The notes beneath the pieces were generated by a model. That model saw nothing but the letters and a program-made list of their open reading frames with translations, was not told the DNA's origin and did no database searches. Shown piece by piece: positions 2,081 through 47,637 of a stretch of DNA of 57,173 nucleotides; within the stretch, counting starts at the first letter, position 1, and each line of letters opens with the position of its first letter. This DNA is from a virus. Taxonomy: Duplodnaviria > Caudoviricetes. The DNA lies in IMG/VR virus record IMGVR_UViG_3300038974_000259, positions 1 through 57,173 of that record, one strand, 5' to 3'. Both the position numbers and the translations under genes were made by a program.

Positions 2081-2473
2081 TTAAAAATTGAATTCAGGAA
2101 TAGAAGTTTGTTCAGTTTGAGTTTGATCAGGACTCTTCTTCACAAGATTAGCCTGTGCCAATACCTGTTTTAATGCTGTCATTGTAGAATTAAATTCTTC
2201 GCGCGTGACATAATTAGTTGAATTAGTCGTAGGCGGTATTTCCTTTAATTCATACATATTTAATGAAGCTGTTCCATCTACATTGCATTGTTTAGTATAG
2301 ATCTTTCCATTGGCCAAATCTGGAAAGAAAGAAACAGTTCCATCAAAATCGACTGCGGCCGCTCGAACCTCCTCAAGACCAGACACTGGACGTCCTTTCA
2401 ACCCGAGCGCAGGTTGACGTGCCTAGACCATTGGTGGTTGATAATAATAATTTTGATTTTGTTGATATGGCAT
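2081..2473 (-). CDS. Uncharacterised protein with Q/N/Y-rich N-terminus; cassette gene 1 (code 15)
   Basis: AAGGAGG RBS, ATG at 2473, MPYQQNQNYYYQPPMVQ(TAG)ARQPALGLKGRPV; 130 aa. Confidence 0.8.
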
Positions 2474-2522
2474 ATTGACTAAACCTCCTTTTACCAAAAA
2501 TTCACGGGAATTTTTCCCTTCC

Positions 2523-2645
2523 CGCATTATTTCTTAAAAAACATTTTAGATCAACTAATAGCGTTTGACCAAAAATTCCCAGGAAATTTTGGTAATGGGC
2601 AAATCTTTATAAAAATATTATTTTAACTTATAAATTATTTTAGAA
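2523..2645. promoter_or_regulatory. Divergent pair of putative phage-specific promoters (GGNCRAR-N27-YA motif)
   Basis: GGTCAAA (minus, 2570) and GGGCAAA (plus, 2597) have the same spacing to a YA/AT-rich box as copies at 7964, 31748, 40148 and 50944. Confidence 0.5.
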
Positions 2646-2676
2646 GGGCATTGGACAAAGGAGGGATTGATTACTA

Positions 2677-3156
2677 ATGGATGTTTGGGAATGGATTGCT
2701 AAATACTGGATTAACTGGGCCTGCTTATTAGTTGCTACAGGAATCGGTATTTTTGCGAAACATTATGTGAAACTACAGAAAAAAGCATTAGAAGAAAAGT
2801 GGAAAGAAAAAGAAAAAAATATGTGCGGAAAAATAATCTGTACTTTAGAAGAGCAGATTTAGAAGGTAGAAACTTAGTCAACAGAAGAAGATGAAAAACT
2901 TCACATGGAACTAAATGAAATTTATCAAGATGTTGATATTTTAGAGTCTGGAATGTTATCTCTTCAAGGAAAACAGTTTAGGGATTTGTGTGAAAAACTA
3001 TTAGAAACTGGATATTATATTACTGTTGACGAGTATGAAGAATTTGAAACAGAATACGAGGTCTATAAAAAACTTGGCGGTAATCACCGCGGAGATGCTT
3101 TACATGATAGAGTGGTAGACAAAGTAAATGCTCAAATTAAATCCGAAAACAAATAA
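2677..3156 (+). CDS. Membrane protein with N-terminal TM and coiled coil, putative holin-like (code 15)
   Basis: ORFs 2677..2862 and 2905..3156 join in frame through 2 TAG; one TM segment (WACLLVATGIGIFA); 159 aa. Confidence 0.65.
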
Positions 3157-3200
3157 AAAAAAGGGCGATAGTCAATTAAGACTATCGCCCTTTTTTTTTA
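3154..3200. terminator. Bidirectional intrinsic terminator
   Basis: A-tract, GGGCGATAGTC-loop-GACTATCGCCC, T-tract, between convergent genes. Confidence 0.9.
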
Positions 3201-3202
3201 TT

Positions 3203-3688
3203 TTATTCACCCCAGTCATTTCCTAATGACCGAATTTTATGTGCGCCAATACAAATGGCATCGCATTCATCTTGCGTTGGTTTTACATTATAATTGGTAA
3301 TGACCCACTGTTGAGCATTTTTCTTTTGTTCAGGCCTTGTTTTACCTTTAATTCCTAAAGTTGATTTCCAAGTTCCCGCTAAAACAGCTTCAACAGGTTT
3401 TTCCATATCTATACAGAGTTCATAGAGAACTCCAAATACTTCAGCAAGAGCTTTAAATGTCTAAACATTATTTACTCGCTAACCATCCATATATATATCT
3501 TCAAGGATTACAGCGTCAATATGCTCATCATCTATTAAATGTTCCACTTCTTGACGAATTACATGGAGTCTTTCGCCTAACTCGAAGTATTTACTGACAT
3601 CAATCTTGCCATACTGCTCAAGTGTATCCCCATCAAAGATGGCCCAGCCGGACACTCGACTCGCCTGGTCTAATGCCAGGATTCTCAT
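3203..3688 (-). CDS. ruvC: Holliday junction resolvase, RuvC-like (code 15)
   Basis: ILALDQAS, VILED, NVQ(TAG)TFKALAEVFG and DECDAICI motifs; two fragments joined via 2 TAG. Confidence 0.85.
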
Positions 3689-4203
3689 GATGTGGACCCA
3701 AAGCCTCCAAGACGCTTGGCCGCTATTACCTCGCCAGTCGTAAAATACGGAAGGAAAATACCCTGTCCAATTTTCTCTCCCTTTTGGAGGATAATGTCTT
3801 GAGGGAAGAGGTTAATTATCTGGAAGAAGATATGTCCTTCGTTATCAGGATTATTATAATAGTCACTGTCAACTACGCCGACTCCATTAGCAAGGATTAA
3901 CCATGACTTAAGAGGACAGGATGACCTAACAGAGAGTTGTAGATACATATCATCGGGAATGTATGCTTTTACTCCTGTTGGAACCAATGTGGGTCTATAT
4001 CCTGTTGCTTTAGTGAAGTTTGCGACCTCTCCGAGAGTTAGGGGGCTATCAATGAAGGTATCTCCTGGAAAAGCTTTGATTGAAGGAATAATAATATCTT
4101 CAGCTACATAAAAATCATATCCGGCGCTATGAGCAGTTGCTCTCGTCGGAAGGAGTTCTGGATGCTCCTTATATTTTGTTATTAATTCAAAACTCGGTCT
4201 CAT
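3685..4203 (-). CDS. dut: dUTPase (trimeric type)
   Basis: SAGYDF, RSS, GVVDSDY and RLGGFGST motifs; start placed at ATG 4203. Confidence 0.95.
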   Translation of the reverse strand: MRPSFELITKYKEHPELLPTRATAHSAGYDFYVAEDIIIPSIKAFPGDTFIDSPLTLGEVANFTKATGYRPTLVPTGVKAYIPDDMYLQLSVRSSCPLKSWLILANGVGVVDSDYYNNPDNEGHIFFQIINLFPQDIILQKGEKIGQGIFLPYFTTGEVIAAKRLGGFGSTS

Positions 4204-5599: not shown

Positions 5600-7872
5600 T
5601 ACTCAAGCACCCCCACGTGCTTGACTCTATGATGAACTTCATCTTGCTTACCCTTATTAAAAGCCGTGGTATAGTTACCAGTAAGATAGCCTGTTACACG
5701 CCTTAACTGCTGAATATTGCTGCTGCCGCAAACAGGACAGGCATCATTGATTTCTCCTTGGAAACCGCAATCCAAGCAAGTATCACTCGGAACATTGATA
5801 GCAAAATAAGGAATATCATGTTCCATGGCGTAATTAACAATTTGCTCAAGAGCTTTTGTATTATGAATAGCAGAAGCATCAAGTTCAACATAAGTAATAC
5901 ATCCAGCATTTGAATATCCTGTCAACTGAGATTCAATATCAATCTTTTCAAACGGGCTAAGATTGTGCCATACTGGAACGTGAATAGAGTTTGTGAAGAA
6001 TTCTTTATCGCTTACGTGCTCAATAATTCCCCACTTATCTCTAAACTTTTTAAGCGCGGTATAGCAAAGGTTTTCCGCAGGCGTATAATACACTCCAAAA
6101 TTCAGATGATATTCCTATTTGAATTCTGCGCAACGATTCTTAAATAGTTGCTCAATATGCTTAGCAACTTCCATTCCTTTTTGATCAGTATGGTCACAAT
6201 TCAACATAATCTGTAAAGCTTCCGCGAGTCCTAACTAACCAATTACTAATGTACCATGTTTTAACGCACTACGGATTCCTTCTTCTGGCTTATAACCCAT
6301 CATAGTGTGATTTTCATACATAAACTTTGCGCTTGAAGCATCTTGTGAGCATATCCAATCAAATCTCTCTATTAACATATCTTTTGCTTCATGAATTTTC
6401 TTATCAAGGAGAATTAAGAAAGCATCAACAATATCTATGTCTTCCCCTTTTAAAATTGTCTGTCTTGCTTGCATAGCTAATTCAGGAAGAATAATAGTAA
6501 CAGGACAAATATTGCCACGACCATCTTTTGTCTACGAATTAGTCCCAGGTTCGGCATTGATATCTATCCCGTTCGCTGTGCGGCATCCCATTGTTGAAAA
6601 ATAGGTCTTCGGGTCATTTACATCATATCCAGCATTTCCAGACCAGTCTATATTAGCATAGTTTGGATAGAGCCTCTTTGCTGTACTCTTTAATGCTAAT
6701 TGATATAGATCATAATTAGGGGTCCCAGGTTTATCATTTACACCTTTCATATATTGGAAGATTCCACATGGGAAAATACTTGTCTTATATAAAGTTCCAA
6801 GTCCTTCTATACTTACATCTAACAGAGCTTTTGTAAACATTCTTCCTTCTGGAAGTGTACAAGTTCCATAGTTGATGCTTGTGAAAGGTAATTGATTTCC
6901 AGATCTACTTTGAAGGGTATTAAGATTATGATAAAGACCTTCTACCGCTTGATGAACCTCTCTCTGTGTCATTTTTAAAGCATAATTATAGACTTTCTCA
7001 ACGCAATCATACGGATGAGGTTGTCCAGCTGTTTTATAAACTTCGTCTTCTATAGAAGTTTCCATTGGGTTAATATTAGCTCGTAAAAAGTTTCTTTCTG
7101 GCTCTCTGGCATCTTTAACTTCCCAAACAAAGTCTAATCCATCCATATAGTGTTTAAAGAAACTTTTCCGAATATAAGGAACCATGGTCCAGTCTATATG
7201 AGTTGCGGCTACACCACCAAACTACTGTAGGCTTTGTAGCTAAAAAATTACCGCAACAAGCTGGCACGCTGTGTTCACAGAACCGGCCGGCCGCACGTCT
7301 GTCTGACGAGTATTAAAACCTTTTGCGAGCAACTCGTCAAAGGGAATACTTAAACAGTTGTGAGAGCCAACAGCATAGGCATCAAGGTCATGAATATAAA
7401 TCATATTGCCTTCATGGTTCTCTCTTGCCATTTTTGAAACCAAATTATCCAAAGCATATTGCTTTGTCATATAGGAAGAAGCTTCGCCTATCCGCCCGCC
7501 AAAAGAGTGTTCATCAACGTTAGCATTTTGATTCTACACATTTCTTGCTTCCAGCTTTTCGCCAATAGCGTCAAAGAAATCTGACTTAATATCTCTTGCC
7601 ACTTCTTTCTTATAACGATAGCGGATGTATGCGCGGGCGACATCAGGCCGCTCTGAACGCATTAGATAATCTTCTACCCAATCTTGAATAGTTTCAACAT
7701 TAACTGTAATAGGACTTTTTTCAACCGCTTGTTGAATTTCTGCTGCTATATCTTTAGCAGTGTCATCTTCATAAAGCTATCCATCAACCTCTTTAAAAGC
7801 TGCATTGATGGCTGATATAATTTTTCTTCTATCAAAAATAACGAGAGAACCATCTCTCTTTTCAATAAACAT
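5599..7872 (-). CDS. nrdD: Class III anaerobic ribonucleoside-triphosphate reductase (code 15)
   Basis: ATP cone MFIEKRDG, FQLQSLQQFGG (two Q are TAG), MGCRT, TPAENLC and RRVTGY glycyl-radical motif; one frame of 757 aa with about 7 TAG. Confidence 0.95.
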
Positions 7873-7916
7873 TTTTTAATCCTCCAACACAATATTTAGT
7901 TAATCATAAAATGACC

Positions 7917-7964
7917 ATCTATATATATTGTGATTTTAATTAAAACAATTAATCACTCTTGCCC
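7917..7964 (-). promoter_or_regulatory. Putative phage-specific promoter upstream of nrdD
   Basis: GGGCAAG-N27-CAATATATATAGA. Confidence 0.5.
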
Positions 7965-8305
7965 AATTCCTCTATGAGTCTATTTATATACCAAATACTT
8001 TTCTTTAAATCTTCAACGCCATTTTTATTTTTCCAACGCCAAAGATATTTAATGGCGTTGGCCGTGCATACTGCCTCAATGCCCTCTAAACCAACGGTTG
8101 CTGCTTTAAGAGCATCGATACATTCTATTCCTCCAGCTGTGTAATGCGCTGGGTGATTTACCATATCGGCGGGTTGGGATTCTTGTTTTGGCCTATCCTC
8201 TAGTTCACACTTATCCATATTTCCATAACAACTCACAGGGGGAGCATATTTCTAACCCATGCAATTTCCAAAAACCCCGTTTTCTTCAAAATACTTACAT
8301 TTCAT
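7949..8305 (-). CDS. DUF3310-like phage protein (code 15)
   Basis: VNHPAHY...NAIKYLWRW..KNGVEDLKKS; extended to ATG 8305 through one TAG. Confidence 0.8.
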
Positions 8306-11300
8306 TCTCCGCTCTCTCCTTTGTATCTTTCATTCTAAAGGACTAAATCTCCTTCTGGGGAGACTTCAAGAATGTGATAGAGTTGATGTCCACCTGAAGA
8401 CGCATATTTTTTTGTTATAAACGTATCCCCTGAACGAATACCTTGAACCATAATCATATTTCCTCTATCAAACCATGATTTCTCTACCACATGTCGTACA
8501 CCATCTTCTCCGCGTTCTGAAATGCGTTTATCGAACAAAGCAAAATACTCTTTTCTAAATTTAACATTCACAACACCATCTGTGGTAAGAATAGTTACAA
8601 CACCTTTTGTTTTATTCTTTGCTATACAAGTTCCAGCAATTCGAGTGAGTTTAAATAGATGTATAGCTTTATTCCCCTTGTAAAATGTTCTATCTATTTC
8701 TGGATCTTCTGGCAAATCGTTAAAATTGCTTAATCCATATTTAGGCATGTCAACTTTTGCTAATTCATGGTCATGGCTATAGAAACAAAGAACTTCCATT
8801 TCCCAAGCAGAATAGTTTGCGTCACCAGCATATTTTTTCCAGTCGGCTTCAAATATTCTACTATTAAGCTCAGAAAGAACTTCTTCTCCATCTACGCGCA
8901 GCCACTCTCTGAATACATCCATAAAAGTTTGATACTTTTTATCCCACTTCTTCATATTAAGAAAATGGTCATTTTCAATTAAATTTTCAAATCCTAACTT
9001 ATATAAAAATTCAATAGCTCTTGTATCAAGACTATATTCGGTTGTAAGATTTGGAAGTTTACATACTGCTTTTAAATATCTATTAAACTCATAAACGCTA
9101 TATGCTATTTGTCGTTCCTCTGTGTCTCGCGGAACCATATCTTGTCTTATTAAGGTTGGGAAGTTTTGTAATGTTAATCTTGACTTTTTATCACAAGTTT
9201 CCCAAATGTACCAAGCCATCGCAAGTTTTCTTTCCATCATATCATCAAAAGCTCCTGCTTTGATCAATGATACCATAGCCTACTTTGTTGGTTTAATGCG
9301 TTTATAAAAATCTTTAATTCCTCTATATGGACGATTCTCGATAATCTTATTTACCAAATCATCGTTAACGTTCAGCAATGCTTTCATTCCAAAGAGGATT
9401 CTGTTGTTCTTTACATCTGGCTTAAAACCAAAATCTGAACCATTTATATCTACAAGACTGACTTTTATACCAGCGTTAATAATATCATTTAACGCTTTTG
9501 CGACTTTTCCGTAATCAGTGCTTGTTGCTTTCTTTTTCTTATCATCCTCAACTTCTTCTTCATCGGCATCATATAATGCTTCGCCTTCTTCATCAATAGC
9601 ATCCTCAAGAGAACCACTATTAACTACTAAACACGCAGTATCCCAATATATAGGGTTCCAGTGAGTGCCAAGGTATAATGTTTGCGCGCCGATGAAACTA
9701 TATGCCAGGGCATGAATTACACTGAACGAATAACCCATCTGCGGCCCAGCTCCAAAGCGCCAAACGTATTGGCCAAGGCGAGGACTTTTTGCGCGTTTGA
9801 GAACCTGCTCGCGCAGTTGAGGAATCTTTGACATTTGTTTCTTACCGACAATCTTTCTGGCACTATTTGCTTCACCTAAGCTGAAGCCGCAAATATCATC
9901 GTCCATCAACATTTTCATTAACTGCTCTTGGCTTGGCGGCACTCCATAAGATGGTTTAAAATATGGCTCAAGAGTTTTCTGCTCTTTTTTAGTCAAACCA
10001 AAATTATCCATCTCTTCATACCACAAACTAATATCATTTTTATAACGATAATATTTATCAATCGGACGCTCTTGGCCTTCCTCACCCATTAAACGAATTA
10101 AACCATTTGCGTCTGCCATTTCTAATATTGTTCGAGGTTTTAATTGTTTTGCCGCTTTAGAACCTTCTGCGCTATCAAACTGGAAGGTATTGATAACGGA
10201 TACATCACCAAGAGCATCCCACATTTTTGTATCTGTCTTAATCGGCAATACGCTCGGATGGAGATATTTATTATATATCTCTCGCAGGCTTAAATCTTTT
10301 TCAATTTCTCCATCCTCTTGGAGGAACTGAATAGTTTGAACTATCTTATCTTGAACTTCTGTTACCAGAAAGTCATATTTAGTATTTCCACAATATTCTA
10401 CGTCGTGTAGATTCCACTGTGTTATAATTTCTCCTTTTGGAGTTTTCATAAAAGCACAATGCTCAAAAGGGTCTTTATCAAAAAGAAGAATTCCAGAAGC
10501 ATGAGAACTGCGCTTATTAACAAGTCCTTCTATACCCTCAATGATTTCTAAAAGACCTGGATAATTGTTTACTTCATTTATAAAGGTTTGAACGGGCTTA
10601 CGATTCTTTTCTTCATTACCATATATAACATCATGTATCGGCCAAAGGAATCCTCTCTCTTGAGGAATTAATGATGCCATATATTGCGCTTCATTAACAT
10701 CAATACCATCATGATATTCTTCTATAACTTCTTCGTGCCCACTCGGTACGCCAGTGGTTGTATACCCACTTCCTGGGCCACGATAGCCTCTACACGCAGT
10801 AAGAACAGCAGATTTTGTACCTTCTGTTCCAAAAGTAGAAATTCTGGTACATCCAAAGAGTTTCTTTGCCCATTCTGGAACACTTTCATAGAACATCTTA
10901 CTGCGCTCTGCCGCAATTTTCTGAAGGATTAGACCAATCTTTGATGGACATAGATCAATATCGATATCACCGAGTTCGACTCTCTCTTCGTTTAGATATC
11001 TGAAGAATGGAAGTTCCCATTCTATCGGGTCTAATTGAGTTATGCCTAAAAGATAATGGTTTAGCGCAGCGCAAGATGAACCACGTCCTGCTCCAACCAT
11101 TGAGCCACAATCCCAAATTAAATCAATATAATGTTGAAGTGTATTAGGATAACGAAACATATTTGTTTCTAATTTTTCACCGATTACACTTTTTACTCTG
11201 GCTTCTTCTTCCAGCTCTTTCAGATATAGCTCATTAAGTCCAATTTTCTTATCAATGAGTGATTCAAAGCATTGATTTACCCAATAACGATTTTGAATAT

Positions 11301-12333: not shown

Positions 12334-12361
12334 TGGCAACCTCCACTTTTATCATACTTAT

Positions 12362-12390
12362 ATTATACCATATTTTTTAATATATCACAA
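12362..12390 (-). promoter_or_regulatory. Sigma-A-like promoter
   Basis: TTGTGA-17-TATAAT with extended TG. Confidence 0.65.
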
Positions 12391-33546: not shown

Positions 33547-33548
33547 TA

Positions 33549-36793: not shown

Positions 36794-36824
36794 ATAAGCT
36801 CTCCTTTTTTCATATTATATTTAT

Positions 36825-36853
36825 ATTATATAATATTTTTTGATAAAAAACAA
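36825..36853 (-). promoter_or_regulatory. Sigma-A-like promoter
   Basis: TTGTTT-17-TATAAT. Confidence 0.6.
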
Positions 36854-36855
36854 AA

Positions 36856-36889
36856 AAGAGGGATTAGAATAAAAATTCTAATCCCTCTT
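36856..36889 (-). terminator. Intrinsic terminator
   Basis: AAGAGGGATTAGAAT/ATTCTAATCCCTCTT stem with U-tract. Confidence 0.85.
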
Positions 36890-36892
36890 AAA

Positions 36893-38523: not shown

Positions 38524-38549
38524 ATTTTTTCCTCCTTCCTTAAAGCAAA

Positions 38550-38578
38550 AACTCATAGATATTGCTATCTATGAGTTT
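38550..38578 (-). terminator. Intrinsic terminator
   Basis: AAACTCATAGATA/TATCTATGAGTTT stem. Confidence 0.7.
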
Positions 38579-39830
38579 ACATAAAGTCCGCCAAGCTGGC
38601 TATTTCACTTCTGTGAATTTGCCGCAAAGCGACCTCTCCATATATTGAGTGATTTCTGAAAACTTTTGAGGCTCTTCTCATTCCATTATTAAAGCCATCA
38701 TAATCTACTAAATCTACTTGACTCTTGGTATCTCCATCTAAAATAAAAATACAATCTTCTCCAGCCCTCTATAAAGCGAGCTTTAATAATGGTATGTCTA
38801 AATTTTGAGCTTCTGAAATATATATACCAGCATTCATTCCAGAAGTATCATAACCTCTAATATCGCTCATAGGAAGTAAAAGAAGTTTTTCTTCGTTTAT
38901 AAGCTATTCAACAATAATCTTACTTCCTAATTTGCTTGCTAATAGGTTTCCAATTTGCGAATCGAGAAGTTTCTCGTCTCTGGTTCCTGGATAGAAACCT
39001 AATTTAGCAGAATTTTTTGTTGCTACAGTATTACAAAAGATTATAATTTTACTTATTTTTTCTTTATCTAAAAGGTAAAACAAGTATCCCAATGCCAAGT
39101 GTGTCTTTCCTGACCCCGATGGACCTCTTAACATTGTTATTTTATTATTCATTAGACTATCAGCCGCCATAGCCTAATAAACATCATTTTTATAAGGCTT
39201 AATATCTCCTAATTGTTTAGAAGAAAAGACTTTATATTTTAATGGTCTAAATTTCTCTCCTGTCCAACATAGAGTGTCTACGCACTAATTTGTTTGAGCG
39301 GCGTAAATATTTACATATTCGTTAATATTTAGTCGTTCGCCATAATTATTTGGAAAAGAATAAAAATCTGCCATTTCTGTATCATTCAAATATAAATCTG
39401 TGTAGCCTGTATATTTATCTTTAAACTAAATACTCGCAACTTTTGAACCAAAGAATGTTTCAGCTATTTTTTTCAAAGATAAGTCATTTGTATAGAAGTA
39501 TACATCTTCTTCGGGATGCTCTGAATAATAATAATAAGCTGTAATTAAAATCTTACTATCATTATTATCTTCTAAACAGAATTTACTTAATAATTTATCA
39601 AAAGAAGGTTTATACATAATCCAAGTATATTTATTTGGATTACTGTCTAATCGCTATAATAATTGACGAGCCTAATATTTTACACTAATATCTTTATAGG
39701 GAGAAGTCTTGATATTCTCTAATTCCTTTAGAGTAATATTAGTGATAACAATTTTTTCTTCCGGTTGGAATAATTCATCGTCTGATAAAACTAATAAACT
39801 GCTCGTATCATATATTTTAGTCATCTTCAT
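38577..39830 (-). CDS. phoH: PIN-PhoH protein (code 15)
   Basis: PIN motifs YDTSSL, NNDSKIL and TNDL; GPSGSGKT, LGFYPG, IRG, SEAQN and DGD..SQVD. Confidence 0.9.
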
Positions 39831-40083
39831 AATAGTCGTCGCCGTCCTCTTGTTCTGGAATTACGAATCCAATAGCTCGAGCTGAAGAAGAACCTCCTTC
39901 GCCAAGTTCTTCTTTAAGTTTAGAGATATGAACTGTTGATTCTGTCGTTTTTTCAACAAGTTGAATTTTTATAGTTTCAACCCATTGACACAGTAAACTT
40001 AAAAAGCTGTCAACCAAAGGAACGACCCACTAACAAAAAGCTACGCCAAGTAAAAAGATTATTAAAATATTTATAAGTGTCAC
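39817..40083 (-). CDS. Small membrane protein (code 15)
   Basis: GTG start after AGGG, hydrophobic N-terminus, one TAG, C-terminal AIGF. Confidence 0.6.
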
Positions 40084-40101
40084 CCCTTTTTATTCTAAGG
40101 T

Positions 40102-40148
40102 TCATATAATTATGAAAAAATAAAAAGGAATATTATTTAGATTCGGCC
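40102..40148 (-). promoter_or_regulatory. Putative phage-specific promoter for the phoH-lysin region
   Basis: GGCCGAA-N27-CATAATTATATGAA. Confidence 0.5.
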
Positions 40149-40564
40149 TTTCTAATACTTCTTATCCTTTTATATAATTTTGCTTTATCAGATAAATAAT
40201 TTTTTAGATATTCCTTTTCCTGTCGAATTAAATCTGATACTGTGATAATATCATCTTCGCGCATTATAATTTGACGATTTAACATCCTTGCCATATAGCT
40301 TTTTTTATCATACTACTTACTTTGGCATACTGAATAATAATACTTTTTTAGACCACTTAATTCAGCTTTTAAAGTTTCTTTATAGTCAAGTAAAGAATTT
40401 AAGACAGCTCTATGATAAGCAATTTCACATCCAGTTTTTTCACTCATCATATCGCGGTCATCGTCAGCACATTGCGCAGTGCCTATATATGTTTTTGTTT
40501 TAGACTCAAGAATACAAATTGAAGAGCCTGTTTCTGAATCAAAACAAAATGAAGGTTTAGACAT
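40133..40564 (-). CDS. Hypothetical protein (code 15)
   Basis: 143 aa after reading through TAG 40313. Confidence 0.7.
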
Positions 40565-40596
40565 TTTATAAAATCCTTTCTATAATTTATACTGTA

Positions 40597-40625
40597 ATTA
40601 TATAATATTTTTTTAGATAAAGCAA
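40597..40625 (-). promoter_or_regulatory. Sigma-A-like promoter
   Basis: TTGCTT-17-TATAAT. Confidence 0.65.
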
Positions 40626-40656
40626 AAGAAAGAGAGTAATTATACTCTCTTTCTTT
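40626..40656 (-). terminator. Intrinsic terminator
   Basis: AAGAAAGAGAGTA/TACTCTCTTTCTT stem. Confidence 0.7.
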
Positions 40657-40921
40657 AATATTCGCTTCCGCAGTATTCACATTTATTATTATGAAGTGGT
40701 GCACCGCAATTTTTACAGTTTATTACTTTTACCCTTGCTTTTTCTTTTTTGATATACTCTTTTTTTACTATATTATATCCTATATTAATGAAAGAATTGC
40801 CATCATATATATAACAACCTTCTTTACAATAATAAAGATTTCCTATCTATGGTGATAGTATATAGGATAAGTCATCAACGCTCGCTACGAAGCTAATTGT
40901 TGGAGTCAAAGCAACCTACAA
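40655..40921 (-). CDS. Small zinc-ribbon protein (code 15; start uncertain)
   Basis: C-terminal NCKNCGAPLHNNKCEYCGSEY; GGAGG upstream of TTG; contains TAG. Confidence 0.6.
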
Positions 40922-41436
40922 CAGTCTTGAGCCTCCTCATGCACGTTAACCGCAGTTAAAATCTCTTCATTGGCACGACCTTTTAATTTTTCTATATCAT
41001 TTAGAACGTGATTATAATATCGTATTGTGCTTATCTTTTGGTTTTCTACAAGTTCTTTCTCCTTTTGAATATCAGTCTGTTTATTCTTTTTATTTACAAA
41101 ATGTAGATATTTTAAGAAACTGGAGAAAGAGCTAAAAACTATGTTAATTCTTTCAGCTGCTTCAGCGTCATGTTGATATGTTAGATATCCGCACGAGCGG
41201 TGTGCATCAAATAATCCTATTTTCTATGTTTGCCCGTCCCGATATGCTTCTGGATTGAGATAATAATAGGATTCGAATTGTTCAAAAGAAATCACGGCAC
41301 AGTCTTCTATATCTTTACTTACTTTGTACGTGCCATATTTAGACGCAAGAGAGTCATCATAAAGCACTTCAAAAACGATTATTAAACCAACAATAGCAAT
41401 AAGAGCTACCACAATAGGAAAAATAATTGCGAGCAA
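40906..41436 (-). CDS. Membrane-anchored hypothetical protein (code 15)
   Basis: N-terminal TM; open for 176 aa through one TAG. Confidence 0.7.
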
Positions 41437-41538
41437 AATATATCTCCTTCTTTCTTTTATATTATGACAAAGATAGTTTTTAATAGGTTAAAATATGTAG
41501 CCTTTGGCACATATCTACCATTCCAATGGGAAAATTTA

Positions 41539-41781
41539 TCATCCGTAATAGCCCCCATCGGGCGGGTCACTCTTGTATGACCATCCAAGAGGACAGCGGT
41601 ATCTGGATATAACATCATAGTTTGGGAAAATATAAACAGGCGTCGGTCCTTGGCACATATAAGGAATAAAACCGTAATGCACACATTTATCACATTTTTG
41701 TCTAACGTATTCCTCTCTGTTGGCCGATTTTATTTCATCTTGCTTTACTTTTACTTTTAGTTTATATCTTCTCATTAGCAT
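41539..41781 (-). CDS. Hypothetical Cys-containing protein
   Basis: 80-aa ORF with CDKC...C...C. Confidence 0.55.
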   Translation of the reverse strand: MLMRRYKLKVKVKQDEIKSANREEYVRQKCDKCVHYGFIPYMCQGPTPVYIFPNYDVISRYRCPLGWSYKSDPPDGGYYG

Positions 41782-41808
41782 TCACTCCCATCGAATTCGC
41801 GTTTCTTA

Positions 41809-42366
41809 TTAAAGAAAGTCGTAGCATTCGTCAATCTTTTCTTTCATCTGTTCAATAATTGCGTCTAAATCTACAGGATAACAATTATGAGCATCGACTG
41901 CAACATTATACATATATGGCATATCCATATAGAATAAATCCTTTGAGTGAGTGTGCCCAAATAAGTTTAAAGTCATCTGTGAAAGGGATTCTTTTTCCAG
42001 ATTACCAGTAAGAGTTGGAAAATGAGAGAGATAAAAGTGATATTTTCCGTATTTTAGATAGATTGCGGCCGCCTGTTCTACGACGTTATGAAGCTGGCTG
42101 TAAGCTTCCCAGCGTCTATCTGTATCATGATTACCTCGAACCAGATGAATGTTGCCAGGTAATTCAGATAAAAGAAGCATTCCTGCTTCTAAATCTTGTC
42201 CCAGCATTATATCACCAAGGATATAGAGATGATCGCTGGGCTCCACACAATAATTGAAACGCTCAATGATAGCGTTATTCATTTCTTCTATAGAATTAAA
42301 ACCTCTCGGCTTATAGATAAATTCTCTGTTATGATTAAAATGAAGGTCGCTCGTTATCCAATTCAT
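41809..42366 (-). CDS. Calcineurin-like metallophosphoesterase
   Basis: SDLHFNH, LGD, RGNHD and GHTH. Confidence 0.92.
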   Translation of the reverse strand: MNWITSDLHFNHNREFIYKPRGFNSIEEMNNAIIERFNYCVEPSDHLYILGDIMLGQDLEAGMLLLSELPGNIHLVRGNHDTDRRWEAYSQLHNVVEQAAAIYLKYGKYHFYLSHFPTLTGNLEKESLSQMTLNLFGHTHSKDLFYMDMPYMYNVAVDAHNCYPVDLDAIIEQMKEKIDECYDFL

Positions 42367-42372
42367 TTTTTA

Positions 42373-42843
42373 TCACCACACCTTAAAAATTTGATTGTAG
42401 TTGAAGGAGTCCTCTTCTGGATTGGTCTTACTGAAAAACATTCTGCGAATCACGCCATTTGGTACGAAAGCTCGACCTTCTCTTTGAGCATTTCTTTCGA
42501 GGCACTCTTCGAGAGGAATATCAAACTGAACCACATTAACCTTACATTCTTTTGGAAGTTTAAGATGGTTCAGAAGATTAAGGCGAGATTTTTCATTAAG
42601 ATGGGTAGCGTCCGCAATAACATCAGTAATATTATTGTTATCCAACCCATCTTGAATATTCTTCCAAAAGAGTTTGGTCACTTCTTTTTCATGGGCGAAA
42701 TAGTCTTCTCCCTCCTTAAGGAGGGAGAAGCGAATTTCATCGCGCGATACATATGCCGGAGATTCACAAGAAGGGACTTTTGTATGCTTTGCCCAGTAAG
42801 TTTTTCCGCTGCCAGGGACTCCGCAAAGAATCCAAAGAGTCAT
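42373..42843 (-). CDS. Polynucleotide kinase-like P-loop kinase (AAA_33)
   Basis: GVPGSGKT, SRDEIR, DATHL and ERNAQR. Confidence 0.88.
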   Translation of the reverse strand: MTLWILCGVPGSGKTYWAKHTKVPSCESPAYVSRDEIRFSLLKEGEDYFAHEKEVTKLFWKNIQDGLDNNNITDVIADATHLNEKSRLNLLNHLKLPKECKVNVVQFDIPLEECLERNAQREGRAFVPNGVIRRMFFSKTNPEEDSFNYNQIFKVW

Positions 42844-42849
42844 TTTTTA

Positions 42850-42975
42850 TTAGTTCCTTTCGAGAGTTCTGTAAATTCTCTGCCACTTCTTGATAATTTT
42901 CGCATTTTCTACGGGCTTATTGGAGAGTTTTGCTATGCGATTCTCAATACTCTCCTTTGTTCTGTTAATAATCAA
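42850..42975 (-). CDS. Small basic hypothetical protein
   Basis: 41-aa TTG-start ORF after AGGAG. Confidence 0.45.
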   Translation of the reverse strand: MIINRTKESIENRIAKLSNKPVENAKIIKKWQRIYRTLERN

Positions 42976-43249
42976 AATAATCCGTCTCCTTGTCAAGATG
43001 AGCAGTGGCCTTATATACCATGCTCTTTTTCAGTCTGGACTGAGCCTTCTGAACAACACCCATATCTACGAGGTAGTTCAACTCTCTTGCCATCTTTTGT
43101 GTCGTGAGAGAATTGAGGATCATGTCCTGAGCCTGCATCTCTTTCATTGACATCGACTCCTGATTGTTGTTAAGGACATCTATGAGGCGAGAACGAATCT
43201 CGCCATTTTTTTCGCTGGAGTATTTTGAAGATTTACGATAACCAGGCAT
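42965..43249 (-). CDS. Winged-helix-like DNA-binding protein
   Basis: TTQKMARELNYLVDMGVVQK. Confidence 0.65.
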   Translation of the reverse strand: MPGYRKSSKYSSEKNGEIRSRLIDVLNNNQESMSMKEMQAQDMILNSLTTQKMARELNYLVDMGVVQKAQSRLKKSMVYKATAHLDKETDYFDY

Positions 43250-43504
43250 TTAATTCTCTCCTTTACAAATTGCTATTGATTCTTTTGCTTCTTCGAGATA
43301 AACCCCATTGGAGAAATCCTCTTTGAACTTTCTTTCTTCTTCAAGGTTTCTTACTTCAATGTGATTAACCTCCTGTCCACACCAAGGACAAAACATTTTC
43401 TTTCTGTGGAATGACTTATGCTGAAAACCGAGTTTTCTCCGTAGAGGAATACCCTCTTTGCCACAATTAAGGCAATAAAACTTATGCTCTTCACATTTTG
43501 CCAT
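43250..43504 (-). CDS. Zinc-ribbon protein
   Basis: CLNCG...CPWC...H. Confidence 0.7.
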   Translation of the reverse strand: MAKCEEHKFYCLNCGKEGIPLRRKLGFQHKSFHRKKMFCPWCGQEVNHIEVRNLEEERKFKEDFSNGVYLEEAKESIAICKGEN

Positions 43505-43508
43505 TATA

Positions 43509-43724
43509 TCACCTATCCTTATTAAGAATTTCTGATGAAATATTAAAGGGAAGAATTAAATGAACTAACCAAATAATTCCATACATCTGTAGAGCAGTTA
43601 AATGAGGAAATCCAAACACAGATACCGCTACTGAATTCCAAATCCAAGAGGCGATAACTGCTATGGGGAGTAGAATAGCTGCGATGATTACTATTACCCA
43701 AAGAAGCGCAAGCAGTTTTAACAT
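43509..43724 (-). CDS. Small membrane protein
   Basis: Two hydrophobic segments. Confidence 0.7.
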   Translation of the reverse strand: MLKLLALLWVIVIIAAILLPIAVIASWIWNSVAVSVFGFPHLTALQMYGIIWLVHLILPFNISSEILNKDR

Positions 43725-43756
43725 ACTTATATAATCCTTTCCTACTTTATATTATA

Positions 43757-43811
43757 ATTATAACATAAAAATAAATAAAAATCAAAAAAGCCCCTATTAA
43801 CAGGGGCTTTT
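43757..43811 (-). promoter_or_regulatory. Terminator hairpin followed by a sigma-A-like promoter
   Basis: AAAAGCCCCT/AGGGGCTTTT hairpin; TTGATT-17-TATAAT at 43785..43757. Confidence 0.7.
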
Positions 43812-43821
43812 AAAACAGAAT

Positions 43822-44115
43822 TTACCTGCGGCCGCAGGTGCAGTCGGAGGACTTGTAAAGCATACATTTTTCTTCAATGCAAGGTTGAAATTCTTCTTCC
43901 ATAAATTCCGCCCTTTCAGCAACTATACTCCATGAGTGTTTTTCATTACCTGCCATAAAATATGTCTTTTTCCGGAAAGGGCAGAGTTTTGGAGTTTTTT
44001 CAATATATTGAGGAACTTTTTTTATAGCTTCACAAAAACGCTTCAGGTTTTCAGAGAGTGTATTAAGCTCTGGATCCTCTTGGAAGGTTGGTTTATTTGG
44101 ATACTCGTAGTCCAT
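43822..44115 (-). CDS. Hypothetical protein
   Basis: 97-aa ORF coupled to the RNA ligase. Confidence 0.65.
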   Translation of the reverse strand: MDYEYPNKPTFQEDPELNTLSENLKRFCEAIKKVPQYIEKTPKLCPFRKKTYFMAGNEKHSWSIVAERAEFMEEEFQPCIEEKCMLYKSSDCTCGRR

Positions 44116-45524
44116 TAAACTTCCTCCTGGATATCCTGCGCCTCTTCCATATCTGGTTCAGCAGCCAAATCTTTAGCTATACCTTCCAGAACCTTGAAGT
44201 TAAAGTTTTTGTGCTTATAAGCACAGAATTTTGGACGATTGACAATGCGGATTACAACACCCTCGCGGACATGAGTCTTACCAATAGGGTCTGGACCGTC
44301 ATAGAACTGTTCTGCGATATTTTTGATATATTCTCCAGCAGATACCTCATAGCCTACTGTCATAGTCATATCCTCCATATCGCTACCATTGATATAATCC
44401 TGCCATAGAACAGGAACGCACTTCGCCCCCATTTGCTCGCAACGATAACGCATAAAGTCAGGAGTGTACTCCACAACATCGCCATCTTCGTTAGTCATGG
44501 TCATACGATAGACGTAGAAGTCAGATTGCGGAACTTCAACAGGAAGCTCAAAAGCTCCTATATCATCTATTCCATACTTAACAGCGCATCCATCTGGGTC
44601 GCAACCATAAGAGAAAATAGTAGTCTTGCCGTACTGCTTGGTAAATTCCTTATCTGAAATCTTGCTATTCGCTACAGAAGGCATGATAGGAGTGCCGTTT
44701 GTAGTGAATCCAACAATTTCATAATATACGGTTTCACCCTTGTTTAGCTTGCCTTCGAAGAACAGAGCATGCTGCTTACGGAATTCATTGGAACCGTAGA
44801 AGCCGCCCTCCTCGAAGTTATTGAGAACAACGCGACGAGTTCCAGATACGTAGCCCCAATCATAAATAGGAGTTCCTTCACGCCGCAGGATTCTATCCAG
44901 AAGAGTGCGCTTATATTTTTGAAGCTTCGGTAGATAACCAGTGCGGCCAGAGGTACCATGCATTTTAAGGGTAATCTCAATAAGATCTCCAGGGCGGAAA
45001 GCTTCGAGATTATAAGCAAGCTGTTCAGTATCAGCATGTTCCGCAAACAGTGGCGCTATAGGAACTCTCTTCTTTCGAGTACGATTTCCATCGCTGACAT
45101 GTCCGCGGCGGACATCAACTCTGGGGATATACTTCCGGCAGATTTCATGTCCGTTAACAATTTCAATTTTATCTCCGACTTCAAACTTTGTTTCGCCGGT
45201 ATACTTGAGAGATTCCAGAGGCATAAATAGTCCTTCGGATTTCTCGCCTCGGAGCTTCATCGCGCGGATATTTCGTTTGTCAGGGTCAAGATAACCGCCA
45301 ATATTATTGCCATTTTCGTCCTTTTTACGAACGAGATTATTTTCAGCGCAATATTCTTCGCTTAGCTGGAGGTCTATGGGAAAATAAATTCCCAAATCAT
45401 CAATTTGAGTATTTAAGCCTACGATAACAGAAGCTCCAAAGATTACCGCGATTTGGAGTCTGTCAGCGTTATTATGAGGATGTAGTTCTTTTATTTGAAC
45501 TACATAGCCGCAATGTTCAGACAT
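44115..45524 (-). CDS. RNA ligase (Rnl2/DRB0094-like) with N-terminal OB-like domain
   Basis: HNNADRL N-terminus; TLKMHGT (motif I), YYEIVG, REGVV and YKHK. Confidence 0.85.
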   Translation of the reverse strand: MSEHCGYVVQIKELHPHNNADRLQIAVIFGASVIVGLNTQIDDLGIYFPIDLQLSEEYCAENNLVRKKDENGNNIGGYLDPDKRNIRAMKLRGEKSEGLFMPLESLKYTGETKFEVGDKIEIVNGHEICRKYIPRVDVRRGHVSDGNRTRKKRVPIAPLFAEHADTEQLAYNLEAFRPGDLIEITLKMHGTSGRTGYLPKLQKYKRTLLDRILRREGTPIYDWGYVSGTRRVVLNNFEEGGFYGSNEFRKQHALFFEGKLNKGETVYYEIVGFTTNGTPIMPSVANSKISDKEFTKQYGKTTIFSYGCDPDGCAVKYGIDDIGAFELPVEVPQSDFYVYRMTMTNEDGDVVEYTPDFMRYRCEQMGAKCVPVLWQDYINGSDMEDMTMTVGYEVSAGEYIKNIAEQFYDGPDPIGKTHVREGVVIRIVNRPKFCAYKHKNFNFKVLEGIAKDLAAEPDMEEAQDIQEEV

Positions 45525-45528
45525 ATAA

Positions 45529-46311
45529 TCACTTCTCCTTTATCCAATACCAGTCCATGTATGGAGTATGGTTTGTTAATGCTTTAGAAACGTTATGTGC
45601 GACAGTCTTCTTGTTTGCTTTTGGCTGACTCTTTACAATACGATTGTATGCCCAGGTAATAGCCTGTTCTTTAGATTTAAAATACTTTGGTTTAGCTTCC
45701 TTATTCTTAGCATGAGTGAGTTTGATAATATGCGGCGGGGCTTTAGGCGCTTCTATAATCTTTTGCTCTTCAAATGGACTCTCAATAAGAGGGGGACTAT
45801 TTTTAATATAAGTCATCAATTTTCGCAGTTCAATCGCATCATCCAGAGGGTCATGGGTTTGGTCAGAAATATCAGGTTCAAAATATTTAAGAGCCTTATG
45901 AAGTCCAATAGACTTGGAGTGAAAGAACTTTTTGACCTTGTGCGAATCATCCAAGAGAGAATTCGCAAGATTGAGTACAAAATCTCGGATTTCAGAATCA
46001 TCCATTTTATTTGCTGTGTTAATTAAAAAGATAGGGTCACTATCTCCATAACAGTGGTAAAATACTGGTGTATTTGATTCTGCGCACATTTCACAAATCC
46101 AATTATATAGGTCAGAAAAAGCTTGTTTTGCTTTTGGAGCTCCTATCAGCATCTCTTTTGTGATACCAGTGAGGTTTGTTATGAAGTTTGTAAGTTTGTC
46201 GCCTTTTCGCAGACCTACAAGGCAATCAAAATCACCATATTCGCATGATGCTCCTATAGCAATTACTCTTTCAGAAAATTGAGTTGCCTCAAAGTCAAAA
46301 TATATGTCCAT
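45529..46311 (-). CDS. DEDDh 3'-5' exonuclease
   Basis: YFDFEAT, ITNLTGIT, YGDSD and HDPLDDA. Confidence 0.85.
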   Translation of the reverse strand: MDIYFDFEATQFSERVIAIGASCEYGDFDCLVGLRKGDKLTNFITNLTGITKEMLIGAPKAKQAFSDLYNWICEMCAESNTPVFYHCYGDSDPIFLINTANKMDDSEIRDFVLNLANSLLDDSHKVKKFFHSKSIGLHKALKYFEPDISDQTHDPLDDAIELRKLMTYIKNSPPLIESPFEEQKIIEAPKAPPHIIKLTHAKNKEAKPKYFKSKEQAITWAYNRIVKSQPKANKKTVAHNVSKALTNHTPYMDWYWIKEK

Positions 46312-46343
46312 TGGCTTACCAACCCTTTCATTTTTATATTATT

Positions 46344-46372
46344 ATTATATTATATTTTTATATAAAAATCAA
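46344..46372 (-). promoter_or_regulatory. Sigma-A-like promoter
   Basis: TTGATT-17-TATAAT. Confidence 0.65.
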
Positions 46373-46381
46373 AAAGAAGCT

Positions 46382-46441
46382 GCGGCTGGCGGTGAAGAGG
46401 TCTGAAAGACCAGACCAAAAGTTCATTTCACCGCCGGCCGC
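46382..46441. repeat. 60-nt structured intergenic element, copy A
   Basis: GCGGCTGGCGGTGAA...TTCACCGCCGGCCGC stem; aligns without gaps to 55496..55555. Confidence 0.8.
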
Positions 46442-46444
46442 TAT

Positions 46445-47269
46445 TCACCTTTCAAAAATTGTCGGGAAAACATCATCAGCATAAAACATAGGCGACTTGC
46501 TCAACCACCAGTCAAGTTGTTCTCCGTCTGACTTAAGATAGTCTATCCATCTTTCCCAAATAGCTTTAATATCTTCAGTATCATTAAAGAACTGTTCAAC
46601 ACCAGGTCGCTCAAGTCGGTCAGAGTGATAGTGTGCAAAACACCAAACAGTCCACTTGAAGCACTGACCAAGCTCTTCCAGGAACAGCTCCATAGATTTA
46701 TCAACTTTACTCTGGTCAATACCATTAAGGAATAAGTCAGTAGGCTCCCAGTTAATGGGGCAGGTATGAGAAAGTACAATGTCAACTTCTTCATTAGTTA
46801 AATCTGCTGTACATTGAAGCATTTCCTCTTCAGAAAGTTGTTCATTGTCATACCACCTATATCCCTTTTCAAGTCGATACCACTTATCAACAGAATAAGC
46901 TCCGCCAATCACAGCGACTTTGAATTTCCCAATTCGATAAATACCCCAGTCTTTAAAATACTTGATATTTGGCCACTTCTTTTGGACATAAACTTCACCT
47001 TCTACATCTTCGTCGAAAACAAGCTCCATACCAGGAACATCTTGCGGCCGAGCCTCATGGTTGCCACGGACGCAGTATACCTTAAACTTATACCTTTTGG
47101 ATAAGAAATTTTTCATATGGCTGTCATTCTCGTCCAGGGACCAATTAAGTCCAGCATCGCCAAGGATGATTACAGCGGTTTCTTCGTCTTGTTGAACTTT
47201 TTTATCATAGTTTTTGAACTTGGTGAAATTTCCGTGGCAATCGCCGGTTAAAAGCCAGTGCTTAATCAT
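46445..47269 (-). CDS. Calcineurin-like metallophosphoesterase
   Basis: TGDCHG, LGDAG, RGNHE, GGAYSVD, SHTCP and AHYH. Confidence 0.9.
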   Translation of the reverse strand: MIKHWLLTGDCHGNFTKFKNYDKKVQQDEETAVIILGDAGLNWSLDENDSHMKNFLSKRYKFKVYCVRGNHEARPQDVPGMELVFDEDVEGEVYVQKKWPNIKYFKDWGIYRIGKFKVAVIGGAYSVDKWYRLEKGYRWYDNEQLSEEEMLQCTADLTNEEVDIVLSHTCPINWEPTDLFLNGIDQSKVDKSMELFLEELGQCFKWTVWCFAHYHSDRLERPGVEQFFNDTEDIKAIWERWIDYLKSDGEQLDWWLSKSPMFYADDVFPTIFER

Positions 47270-47355
47270 ATAAATGGTCTCCTTTTATAATTAAAGAGAG
47301 TATGATATAGAAAAACGCTTTTTAAAATGAAATCATTATATAGCCACTTCATTTT

Positions 47356-47637
47356 TTATTTATCCCATCTATGTTCTAAATCAAGAGGACGATTTGATAT
47401 TATTCTCAAATGTCCACAGACTTTACAATAGCACTCTGTTTTATCCTCTGATAAGTATACTCGGTCAGTCTTAAGAGGCTGAGAACAACATAGATATTTA
47501 TCTTTTTTGCTGCGGCCGCAAGGAATAGTCCTTTTCTTGCCAAAATGTTTATATAAAAACCAGTCTATCTCAGCAAAGAAGCGTCTATTTATATCTATAT
47601 ATATTTCAAGAGGCAGGTATTTATTGTTAATTTTCAT
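47356..47637 (-). CDS. Hypothetical Cys-rich protein
   Basis: 93-aa ORF with CKVCG. Confidence 0.6.
   Translation of the reverse strand: MKINNKYLPLEIYIDINRRFFAEIDWFLYKHFGKKRTIPCGRSKKDKYLCCSQPLKTDRVYLSEDKTECYCKVCGHLRIISNRPLDLEHRWDK

Follow-up and report, generated by a model that had tools for sequence, protein, structure and literature searches.

The window analysed here is the 57,173-base stretch of the virus record IMGVR_UViG_3300038974_000259 from IMG/VR, and it carries 11 exact copies of the palindromic word GCGGCCGC. We found that this word is enriched at the level of the DNA, is specific to a clade of phages to which the window belongs, and is nearly absent from the lineage of the candidate host. 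Our tentative reading, which we favour while holding it short of probable, is that GCGGCCGC is a selected cis-acting recognition site for a phage-specific factor; we infer that a protein may read the word, what kind of protein this would be, and what purpose the reading might serve. The window is a fragment of a phage in which TAG is a sense codon: open reading frames (ORFs; our own greedy or curated calls, made with no gene finder) cover 79% of it with the standard bacterial code and 94% when TAG is read as sense, the gain being far smaller with TGA or TAA. Its G+C content is 36.5% overall (33-38% along its length).

The 11 copies reported in the initial annotation were all recovered at their positions (listed below), and its claim that far fewer would be expected by chance agreed with dinucleotide-preserving shuffles of the window (n = 100), which gave a mean of 0.10 and a maximum of 1, with 0 of 100 shuffles reaching 11. 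An octamer at least 15-fold above its composition expectation is a mark of the class of the cyanobacterial palindrome HIP1, and the present word (11 vs. 0.10) lies beyond that mark. The codon- and amino-acid-preserving shuffle that had been proposed as a check placed the count outside expectation as well: synonymous-codon shuffling (n = 500) yielded 1.9 ± 0.9 copies and never more than 6. Codons changed places only inside their own ORF, in a set of 68 curated by hand and translated with TAG as Q, which covered 87% of the bases; the mean of this shuffle includes the intergenic copy at 14088, which lies outside the curated ORFs and was never shuffled, and its codon pool includes the codons that the sites themselves supply. 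All-G/C 8-mers number 82 in the window, above the composition prediction, and 11 of these 82 are GCGGCCGC (binomial P = 3.5e-14 at 1/256). There are 23 one-mismatch words on the plus strand, and the seven one-mismatch copies named earlier are all present.

The ORF calls bore out the statement that the copies fall in three frames and once between genes: seven sites are in frame 0 (Ala-Ala-Ala), two in frame 1 (Cys-Gly-Arg), one in frame 2 (Arg-Pro-Arg) and one is intergenic. Among the Ala-Ala-Ala windows of the curated proteome, 7 of 15 are spelled GCG-GCC-GCN, against 0.3 expected from Ala codon usage (P = 8e-9), and therefore the signal is at the nucleotide level and falls mostly where it is cheapest for the protein. 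Since the excess survives the codon shuffle, since sites occur in all frames and in non-coding DNA, and since their synonymous positions are fixed, the view that the signal belongs to the DNA and not to the proteins holds. The sites of the window, their outer-position variants and one related hairpin are as follows.

2355..2362, GCGGCCGC, in ORF 2081-2527(-), frame 0, read as V-R-A-A-A-V
14088..14095, GCGGCCGC, the sole intergenic copy, between ORFs 13895-14059(-) and 14140-14703(-)
17802..17809, GCGGCCGC, in the small ORF 17728-17952(-), frame 2, M-R-P-R
21480..21487, GCGGCCGC, in ORF 21449-22381(-) (phrog_2367, of unknown function), frame 0, P-A-A-A-A-P
22883..22890, TGCGGCCGCA, in the thymidylate-synthase-like ORF 22783-23589(-), frame 0, I-A-A-A-A-S
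29055..29062, GCGGCCGC, in gyrA 27875-30244(-), frame 0, S-A-A-A-A-K
34299..34316, the 18-bp perfect palindrome AACCTGCGGCCGCAGGTT, in a loop of RNase H, ORF 34057-34491(-), frame 0, K-P-A-A-A-G
37865..37872, GCGGCCGC, in the lysozyme/CHAP ORF 37237-38556(-), frame 0, L-A-A-A-G
42065..42072, GCGGCCGC, in the metallophosphoesterase ORF 41809-42366(-), frame 0, Q-A-A-A-I
43824..43839, the 16-bp perfect palindrome ACCTGCGGCCGCAGGT, at the 3' end of ORF 43822-44115(-), frame 1, T-C-G-R-R-stop
47511..47520, TGCGGCCGCA, probably in ORF 47356-47637(-), frame 1, C-G-R, overlapped by the plus-strand ORF 47507-47869
7287, 14034, 15390, 27120, 38033 and 46434 (span 7287..46441), six outer-position variants CCGGCCGC/GCGGCCGG
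55490..55560, a long imperfect hairpin between ORFs 54732-55448(-) and 55566-57155(-), adjoining a G+C-rich island

The longer palindromes that the initial annotation pointed out, 18 bp at 34299-34316 and 16 bp at 43824-43839, are both perfect over their full lengths.

Relatives were collected by GyrA-based and 16-mer-based searches of IMG/VR and by a DnaB-based search of a genome collection. They form a clade of large gut and rumen phages (records of 45-200 kb), in which the larger relatives span 96-200 kb and those tested also have TAG as a sense codon. Their contents of exact GCGGCCGC sites are as follows.

G008, 200 kb, 17 sites (CheckV: 100% complete)
G001, 128 kb, 11 sites
G006:C101, 121 kb, 7 sites (phage contig of a metagenome-assembled genome, MAG)
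G009, 158 kb, 6 sites
G013, 45 kb, 6 sites
G012, 47 kb, 5 sites
G004, 97 kb, 4 sites
G007, 55 kb, 3 sites
G015, 13.5 kb, 3 sites
G014, 8.7 kb, 2 sites
G002, 140 kb, 2 sites
G005, 158 kb, 0 sites (CGGCCG also 0)

As a control we counted the reversed word, of which each of these records has 0-1 copies. The k-mer enrichment in relatives that had been suggested as a further check was clear, with 56 sites in six enriched genomes pooled (761 kb) against 3.5 expected from a second-order Markov model or 0.84 from base composition. The GCG-GCC-GCN spelling of Ala-Ala-Ala is likewise in excess (observed vs. expected: G001, 8/39 vs. 0.94; G004, 4/20 vs. 0.69; G008, 9/38 vs. 1.09; G009, 6/44 vs. 0.63; pooled with the window, 34/156 vs. 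3.66), and the other three palindromes that encode Ala-Ala-Ala (GCAGCTGC, GCTGCAGC and GCCGCGGC) show no enrichment. The 58 sites of seven genomes divide into 37 in frame 0 and 21 elsewhere, of which 10 lie in other frames and 11 in non-coding DNA. Two apparent regularities in the placement of the sites were set aside: clustering in the replication module (9 of 11 sites in G001, 6 of 7 in G006), but sites spread genome-wide in the complete G008; and regular spacing, seen as five successive gaps of 20-28 kb in G008, which was spotted post hoc and is not repeated in the other genomes.

The 121-kb contig of the clade was binned in a 2.4-Mb MAG (G006) titled 'Clostridia bacterium'. All 10 sites of this MAG lie on three contigs of the phage clade (7 on the 121-kb contig, 2 on a 7.5-kb contig that repeats a stretch of its sequence, and 1 on a third contig of 30% GC that encodes structural proteins of the same clade) and none in the remainder. 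In 20 relatives of the MAG (~28.5 Mb) we counted 8 sites in total, 0-2 in each, no more than for a control word. The host assignment is the binning of one MAG only, and binning is no proof of host. The word is a property of the phage; it is near-absent from the candidate host lineage and gives no pointer to a host-wide process.

Outside the 8-mer, the symmetrised flanks of 35 sites (70 half-sites) favour T at -1 (47/70), C at -2 (42/70), C at -3 (29/70) and A at -4 (32/70), giving the consensus ACCT-GCGGCCGC-AGGT, a palindrome of ~16 bp; the consensus of G008 is longer (TTcACCT...AGGTgAA). The exact 16-mer ACCTGCGGCCGCAGGT is present at 19 IMG/VR loci, 13 of which are AT-rich, an odd setting for a 16-mer of 75% G+C; 10 of these 13 encode proteins of this clade, which makes the 16-mer a sharp metagenome marker for it. 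Left and right flanks are complementary at 148 of 336 positions, compared with 124 for shuffled partners (P = 0.0012). The palindrome extends beyond the 8-mer by 0 or 1 bp in 35 of 56 sites and by at least 4 bp in 6 (2.7 expected). One-mismatch variants in the pooled 761 kb are unevenly distributed: CCGGCCGC has the highest enrichment (36 vs. 4.9 expected from the second-order Markov model), followed by TCGGCCGC (22 vs. 5.7), and ACGGCCGC is at expectation (5 vs. 5.0). One-letter deviations are thus biased to the first and last positions, as in the HIP1 class, and this bias is expected if the inner CGGCCG matters most.

Comparison of orthologous positions revealed fast turnover of sites together with local conservation at the nucleotide level, so that the conservation in orthologues that had been proposed as a check was found at one place and not at most others. 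In the gene for RNase H, the 16-mer ACCTGCGGCCGCAGGT is identical at 16 of 16 positions in four lineages (the window, G009/G007, L055 and L059), whereas identity over the 90-nt flanks is only 68-75%, and the neighbouring codons are divergent and include an indel. The 18-bp palindrome of RNase H is missing in G001 and has a different sequence in G008, the clearest case of an indel. Wherever a site of the window can be aligned with G001, the latter has no site, and the same is true in the other direction; G008 and G009 have 0 of their 23 sites in common; and G002 and G006, which are 92% identical over 48 kb, have one site in common, with 4 of the 7 sites of G006 in segments missing from G002.

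Where orthologous positions can be aligned, the series of substitutions are stepwise and equal in length. The relatives keep Ala-Ala-Ala at 2355 with other codons, giving the series GCTGCTGC -> GCAGCAGC -> GCGGCAGC -> GCGGCCGC; at 29055, in gyrA, they read TCGGCCGC, TCTGCCGC and GCTGCTGC, with the series TCTGCCGC -> TCGGCCGC -> GCGGCCGC; and at the place of 17802 they read TGCGGACGC and TGTGGTCGC. Some gains changed the protein. Orthologues of the metallophosphoesterase read L-Q-N-A-I or T-K-N-S-I in place of Q-A-A-A-I, and the Ala-Ala-Ala at 42065 is therefore new; elsewhere, the ligase of G001 has gained A-A-A in place of E-A-R, and a DUF3310 protein has exchanged K for A. The conserved R-L-R-P-G/Q-V stretch of GyrB carries a site in G001 and G008, and G004 has the same Q with no site. 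Small in-frame indels accompany a few sites, such as 22883 in the window, where G008 is shorter by 9 bases, and 155059 in G009. Sites also occur in non-coding structured segments: two lie in the gyrB inserts of G006, one of them replacing an AT-rich hairpin that the window has there; in G008 and G006 the palindrome takes the place of an intron-like hairpin; and a terminator-like hairpin of G008 has exact sites as both arms. Each arm of the window's hairpin at 55490-55560 holds one one-mismatch copy (GCGGCTGC at 55496 and GAGGCCGC at 55548), and in G008 the homologous arms, at 163618 and 163670, are two exact sites with a spacing of 52 bp.

The gyrB gene of the window is split inside the Toprim D-A-D-V-D-G run by a 1065-nt insert at 30739-31803(-), within which lies a GIY-YIG ORF (30875-31588). 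In contigs from three other runs, 30738 is followed directly by 31804 or 31810, so that gyrB reads continuously through D-V-D-G-A-H-I, and the inserts of relatives are at other positions of the gene. Rfam gave no match at the gathering threshold for the window and three relative loci, nor at E up to 1 for two gyrB insert regions, which leaves the label 'group I intron' unconfirmed.

The initial annotation had also raised methylation of the sites by a phage enzyme, and this idea found no support. PF00145 (C5 methylase), PF01555 (N4/N6) and PF02086 (Dam-type) had no match in 11 phage records, one of which CheckV rates as 100% complete, PF03852 (Vsr) had none in the phage records searched, and PF02384 (N6_Mtase) gave a single sub-threshold match of 16 bits, in G009. 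An orphan methyltransferase for the inner hexamer, which would be typical of the HIP1 class, was not found in the 11 records, CheckV estimating the completeness of the window's own contig at 35%. A 218-aa protein with an NPPY motif and weak similarity to N6_Mtase/EcoRI_methylase occurs only in G008 and G009, between the genes for helicase and DnaE (G008 26468-27124, L070:6468-7124; G009 77141-77431), and the window lacks it at the syntenic place.

The protein encoded at 54732-55448(-) has a helix-turn-helix, a Cys4 ribbon and a C-terminal domain that matches Vsr. With VIA-align, the match to Vsr (1cw0_A) has Z 10.4 and covers 115 residues at an rmsd of 3.3, and that to the homing endonuclease I-Bth0305I (3r3p_B) has Z 9.2; Foldseek gave a probability of 0.97-0.98 to Vsr with a weak E-value of 0.04-0.08. 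G008 has at least eight paralogues, and the eight that were aligned with the window protein have 1-4 Cys4 repeats of the pattern W-x-C-x-C-D-C-G-N...S-C-G-C (e.g., L077:2143-3039), and Pfam returned only a weak DUF2726 match for the family. In G008, 5 of 17 sites lie within 200 bp of genes of this family (1.4 expected; P = 0.01). Since homologues are present in the site-free G005 too, these proteins are more simply understood as homing endonucleases, and the family is probably a set of modular homing endonucleases. As to a likeness of 54732-55448 to NotI, there was no sequence match to solved structures, and NotI is not among the fold matches listed, which does not exclude it.

Several other proteins came into view as candidate readers of the word. 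Of ten small window proteins compared with PHROGs, only the MarR-like protein at 22394-22744 had a match, 'transcriptional regulator'. The 88-aa winged-helix-like protein at 25220-25483(-), with one in-frame TAG and a weak sub-threshold Pfam similarity to Z-alpha, is among the best-conserved small proteins compared (79-92% identity in G001, G005 and G008; 50% in G004). No gene tracks site density across the few genomes available. Among the 262 ORFs of G008, the only ones that site-bearing relatives have and G005 lacks encode NAD-ligase, a small HExxH-like protein and some tiny products, and none of these is reader-like. Uracil-DNA glycosylase (UDG), found only in G000, G001, G008 and G009, was also rejected, as it looks like an ordinary uracil glycosylase; we take its motifs GQDPY and HPSPLS to be marks of family 1.

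In the reading that we tentatively favour, GCGGCCGC would be the invariant core of a palindrome of ~16 bp, A-C-C-T-GCGGCCGC-A-G-G-T, that is a hallmark of the clade. The data agree with directional pressure on a DNA word peculiar to the phage. The word would be gained by ordinary mutations where its cost is small, namely in Ala-Ala-Ala or P-A-A-A-G stretches, in the stems of intron-like inserts and in a terminator-like hairpin, with an occasional amino-acid change as the price, and it would be held letter-perfect at one place at least. The putative reader would probably be a symmetric dimer on double-stranded DNA. Hardly any word can be rarer in an AT-rich cell than an all-G/C 8-mer, by which such a factor could tell phage from host DNA, and its purpose might be genome organisation, packaging, replication or recombination. 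A more specific version, in which the word is a barcode of the phage genome and the factor recognises its own DNA among the DNA of the host and of competing phages, for packaging, replication-coupled recombination or protection, is possible, though we regard it as doubtful. If true, the barcode would stand beside uptake sequences, Chi and HIP1 as their counterpart in a virus, and would be the first iterated word belonging to a virus alone.

Several observations weigh against a selected recognition site. Most sites have no positional conservation between genomes, as the pair G008 and G009 illustrates, and a function therefore cannot depend on particular positions. Site density ranges from 0 to ~20 per 100 kb across the clade, and since it falls to 0, the word is dispensable in at least one member. 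No reader protein was identified: ParB_N (PF02195) had no match in 6 records, and both winged-helix candidates (22394-22744 and 25220-25483) are also encoded by the site-free G005. The excess complementarity of the flanks could reflect structure rather than binding by a dimer. A self-correcting molecular drive would also fix the 16-mer, so that the constraint in RNase H does not separate selection from drive, and the assignment of the host depends on how one MAG was binned.

Molecular drive with no function for the organism is an explanation that we consider unlikely, though it deserves weight. Here a phage nuclease or repair pathway would turn near-cognate words into GCGGCCGC, which would accumulate selfishly through very-short-patch-like or mismatch-directed repair or through biased gene conversion in mixed infections. 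It would follow Elhai's mismatch-repair model for HIP1 (PMC4390886), as well as drive models for uptake sequences, and it could draw on a multi-copy family with a Vsr-fold nuclease domain in these very phages; the gains are single substitutions through one-mismatch intermediates, and drive would account for the fixed 16-mer as well as for the tolerated amino-acid changes. However, neither a cytosine or amino methyltransferase nor a match to the Vsr family was found in the records searched, and repair of T:G to C:G should deplete GCAGCCGC (= GCGGCTGC), which is not depleted among the third-position variants of the pooled 761 kb (34 vs. 32 and 25 for the others). Moreover, G005 has Vsr-fold homologues yet neither a site nor CGGCCG, the nearest solved relative after Vsr is a homing endonuclease, and the proximity of 5 of 17 sites in G008 to such genes fits ordinary homing genes. 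A hairpin in single-stranded DNA or RNA, with stem ACCUGC/GCAGGU and loop GGCC, acting as a structural or processing element, is distinctly unlikely. The paired flanks and the longer extensions would agree with it, as would those sites of relatives that lie in the stems of structured non-coding DNA (the gyrB inserts of G006) and the terminator-like hairpin of G008 with sites as both arms; yet the extension of 0-1 bp in 35 of 56 sites is too short for a stable stem, the core is conserved as a sequence and not through compensatory changes, and the surrounding segments, putatively structured as RNA, have no Rfam match. On the sense strand of 47 coding sites, G.U pairs (23 vs. 22.0 expected) have no advantage over A.C pairs (34 vs. 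32.6), and pairing in RNA thus has no specific support.

A miniature mobile palindrome, inserted as a unit of 16-20 bp that encodes a harmless peptide in every frame (PAAAG, TCGRR or LRPQV), is quite improbable. Discrete presence or absence, as expected of such an element, was seen as a block change in RNase H and in one intron-like hairpin (that of G008 and G006), and the indels at 22883 and 155059 and the 4 of 7 G006 sites in segments absent from G002 point the same way, but most of the other alignable sites arose by constant-length substitution in pre-existing Ala runs and extend little or not at all past the 8-mer; neither target-site duplication nor association with a transposase was seen, no systematic search having been made for either. 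Drive, hairpin and small insertion are not mutually exclusive. That the host imposes the signal, through a methyltransferase and repair or through restriction of the NotI/EagI type, is very improbable: HIP1 and its CGATCG methyltransferase offer an analogy (PMC4390886), and the outer-position bias of the one-mismatch variants resembles HIP1, but a host-wide process should mark the host too, and the MAG with the clade member has no sites outside the phage contigs and its 20 relatives have 0-2 each; moreover, restriction selects against a word, not for it. It is scarcely credible that the excess arose by chance, from codon bias or as an artefact of cloning or assembly, for instance through NotI linkers. 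Ala-rich peptides do raise GCN-GCC-GC words about four-fold, even in motif-free relatives (third-position variants), but the codon-preserving shuffle gave 6 copies at most against 11, the other three Ala-Ala-Ala palindromes are not enriched, and the sites lie in frame inside conserved genes across many independent assemblies. Linkers would place sites at junctions of unrelated sequence and leave them missing from independent assemblies; instead, at least 11 related phage records show enrichment of this very word, within continuous conserved ORFs.

HIP1 (GCGATCGC), which had been named as the closest precedent, is a fair one, the two sharing over-representation, occurrence in all frames, independence from codon bias and deviations at the outer letters. 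According to Elhai (2015; PMC4390886) and Xu et al. (2018; PMC5861425), HIP1 and the alternate cyanobacterial palindromes are 8-bp, G/C-framed and over-represented by one to two orders; they occur in coding DNA in all frames and in non-coding DNA, with codon bias no explanation; one-mismatch variants are biased to the first and last letters (Elhai, PMC4390886); there is some conservation at the nucleotide level; and the function of HIP1 is likewise unknown. The phage word differs in being carried by a virus whose candidate host lineage lacks it, in the word itself, and in its density of 1 per 5-25 kb compared with ~1 per kb, so that neither the density nor the cyanobacterial genome of the HIP1 class is found. 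It also has no cognate methyltransferase that we could find, flanks that extend the palindrome to ~16 bp, and mostly no positional conservation. Because replicon, word and density differ and no methyltransferase was found, we do not file the phage word as HIP1.

Uptake sequences (USS of Haemophilus, DUS of Neisseria) and Chi are asymmetric words of cells with known reading machineries. Like the phage word, they are short G/C-rich words of self that are dispersed over the genes of AT-rich genomes and are placed where proteins tolerate them, form inverted pairs as terminator stems, and accumulate by point mutation under drive or selection. In contrast, the phage word is palindromic and phage-borne and has candidate readers only, and it is not over-represented in the host chromosome, with 0 sites in the non-phage part of MAG G006, a host by binning only. 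The sites parS of ParB, NBS of Noc, SBS of SlmA and matS of MatP are dispersed, positionally conserved palindromic sites of chromosome-organising proteins, and they resemble the phage word in being palindromes of 12-16 bp, with a few to tens per replicon and often inside genes; they are read by dimers, as the phage word may be. The phage word differs in its mostly unconserved positions and in that neither a ParB_N match nor another binding protein was found for it. Palindromes inside working protein genes are also known from GC clusters and other palindromic mini-elements of AT-rich genomes, and the comparators for a mobile palindrome are mitochondrial GC clusters, Rickettsia palindromic elements and cyanobacterial small dispersed repeats. 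In mitochondria of Nematomorpha, long coding palindromes of up to 284 bp, whose sequence differs by place, lie in frame in working protein genes of an AT-rich genome, as described by Mikhailov et al. (2019; PMC6649704). The phage case differs in that one short word is iterated.

A full-text literature search, which left supplements and most subscription journals uncovered, gave no prior description of an iterated palindrome of the GCGGCCGC type in phages. Palindromes of the HIP1 type have stayed unexplained for about three decades, and the cases found in the literature are all cellular, whereas the present one is in a virus. The replicon is small and the density in its close relatives varies between 0 and ~20 sites per 100 kb, which makes the question tractable: the reader, if any, must be encoded by the phage or act on the phage only, and finding it would show how a virus marks its own DNA.

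The remaining observations concern the gene content of the window. Its genes are almost all on the minus strand, and a megablast of positions 25000-45000 against GenBank phages gave no match. A module for replication and nucleotide metabolism encodes NrdD/NrdG, a DnaE-type polymerase, an SF1 helicase, RecJ, DnaB, a NAD-ligase, GyrA, the split GyrB, RNase H, UDG, RuvC and dUTPase, and the endolysin is the lysozyme/CHAP protein. ARAGORN found no tRNA gene in the window, suppressor tRNA included. In-frame TAG codons number 1-10 each in many genes and are absent from the block 41809-50949, which includes an RNA-repair-like cluster at 41809-50650(-) with two metallophosphoesterases, an AAA_33 kinase, an RNA ligase with a PHA02142 OB domain, an RNase T-type exonuclease and an RlaP-type nucleotidyltransferase.

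The thymidylate-synthase-like protein (22783-23589(-), a partial match) is common only to the window, G008 and G009, and a cluster of Methyltransf_23, a family-2 glycosyltransferase and a radical-SAM protein (33549-36793(-)) has no match in the relatives compared; together they might serve nucleotide or DNA modification. Two further perfect palindromes, of 24 bp (4371-4394) and 26 bp (42705-42730), are unrelated to GCGGCCGC. The G+C-rich island at 55566-57155(-) has 55-60% G+C, compared with 36% for the whole window, and carries the gene for a DUF2828/DUF7788/VWA protein. Its other strand also holds a long open frame, and the island looks like a recent acquisition. Nearby, a pyrimidine-dimer DNA glycosylase of the T4 endonuclease V type (54310-54735(-)) is shared only with G001, G008 and G009.

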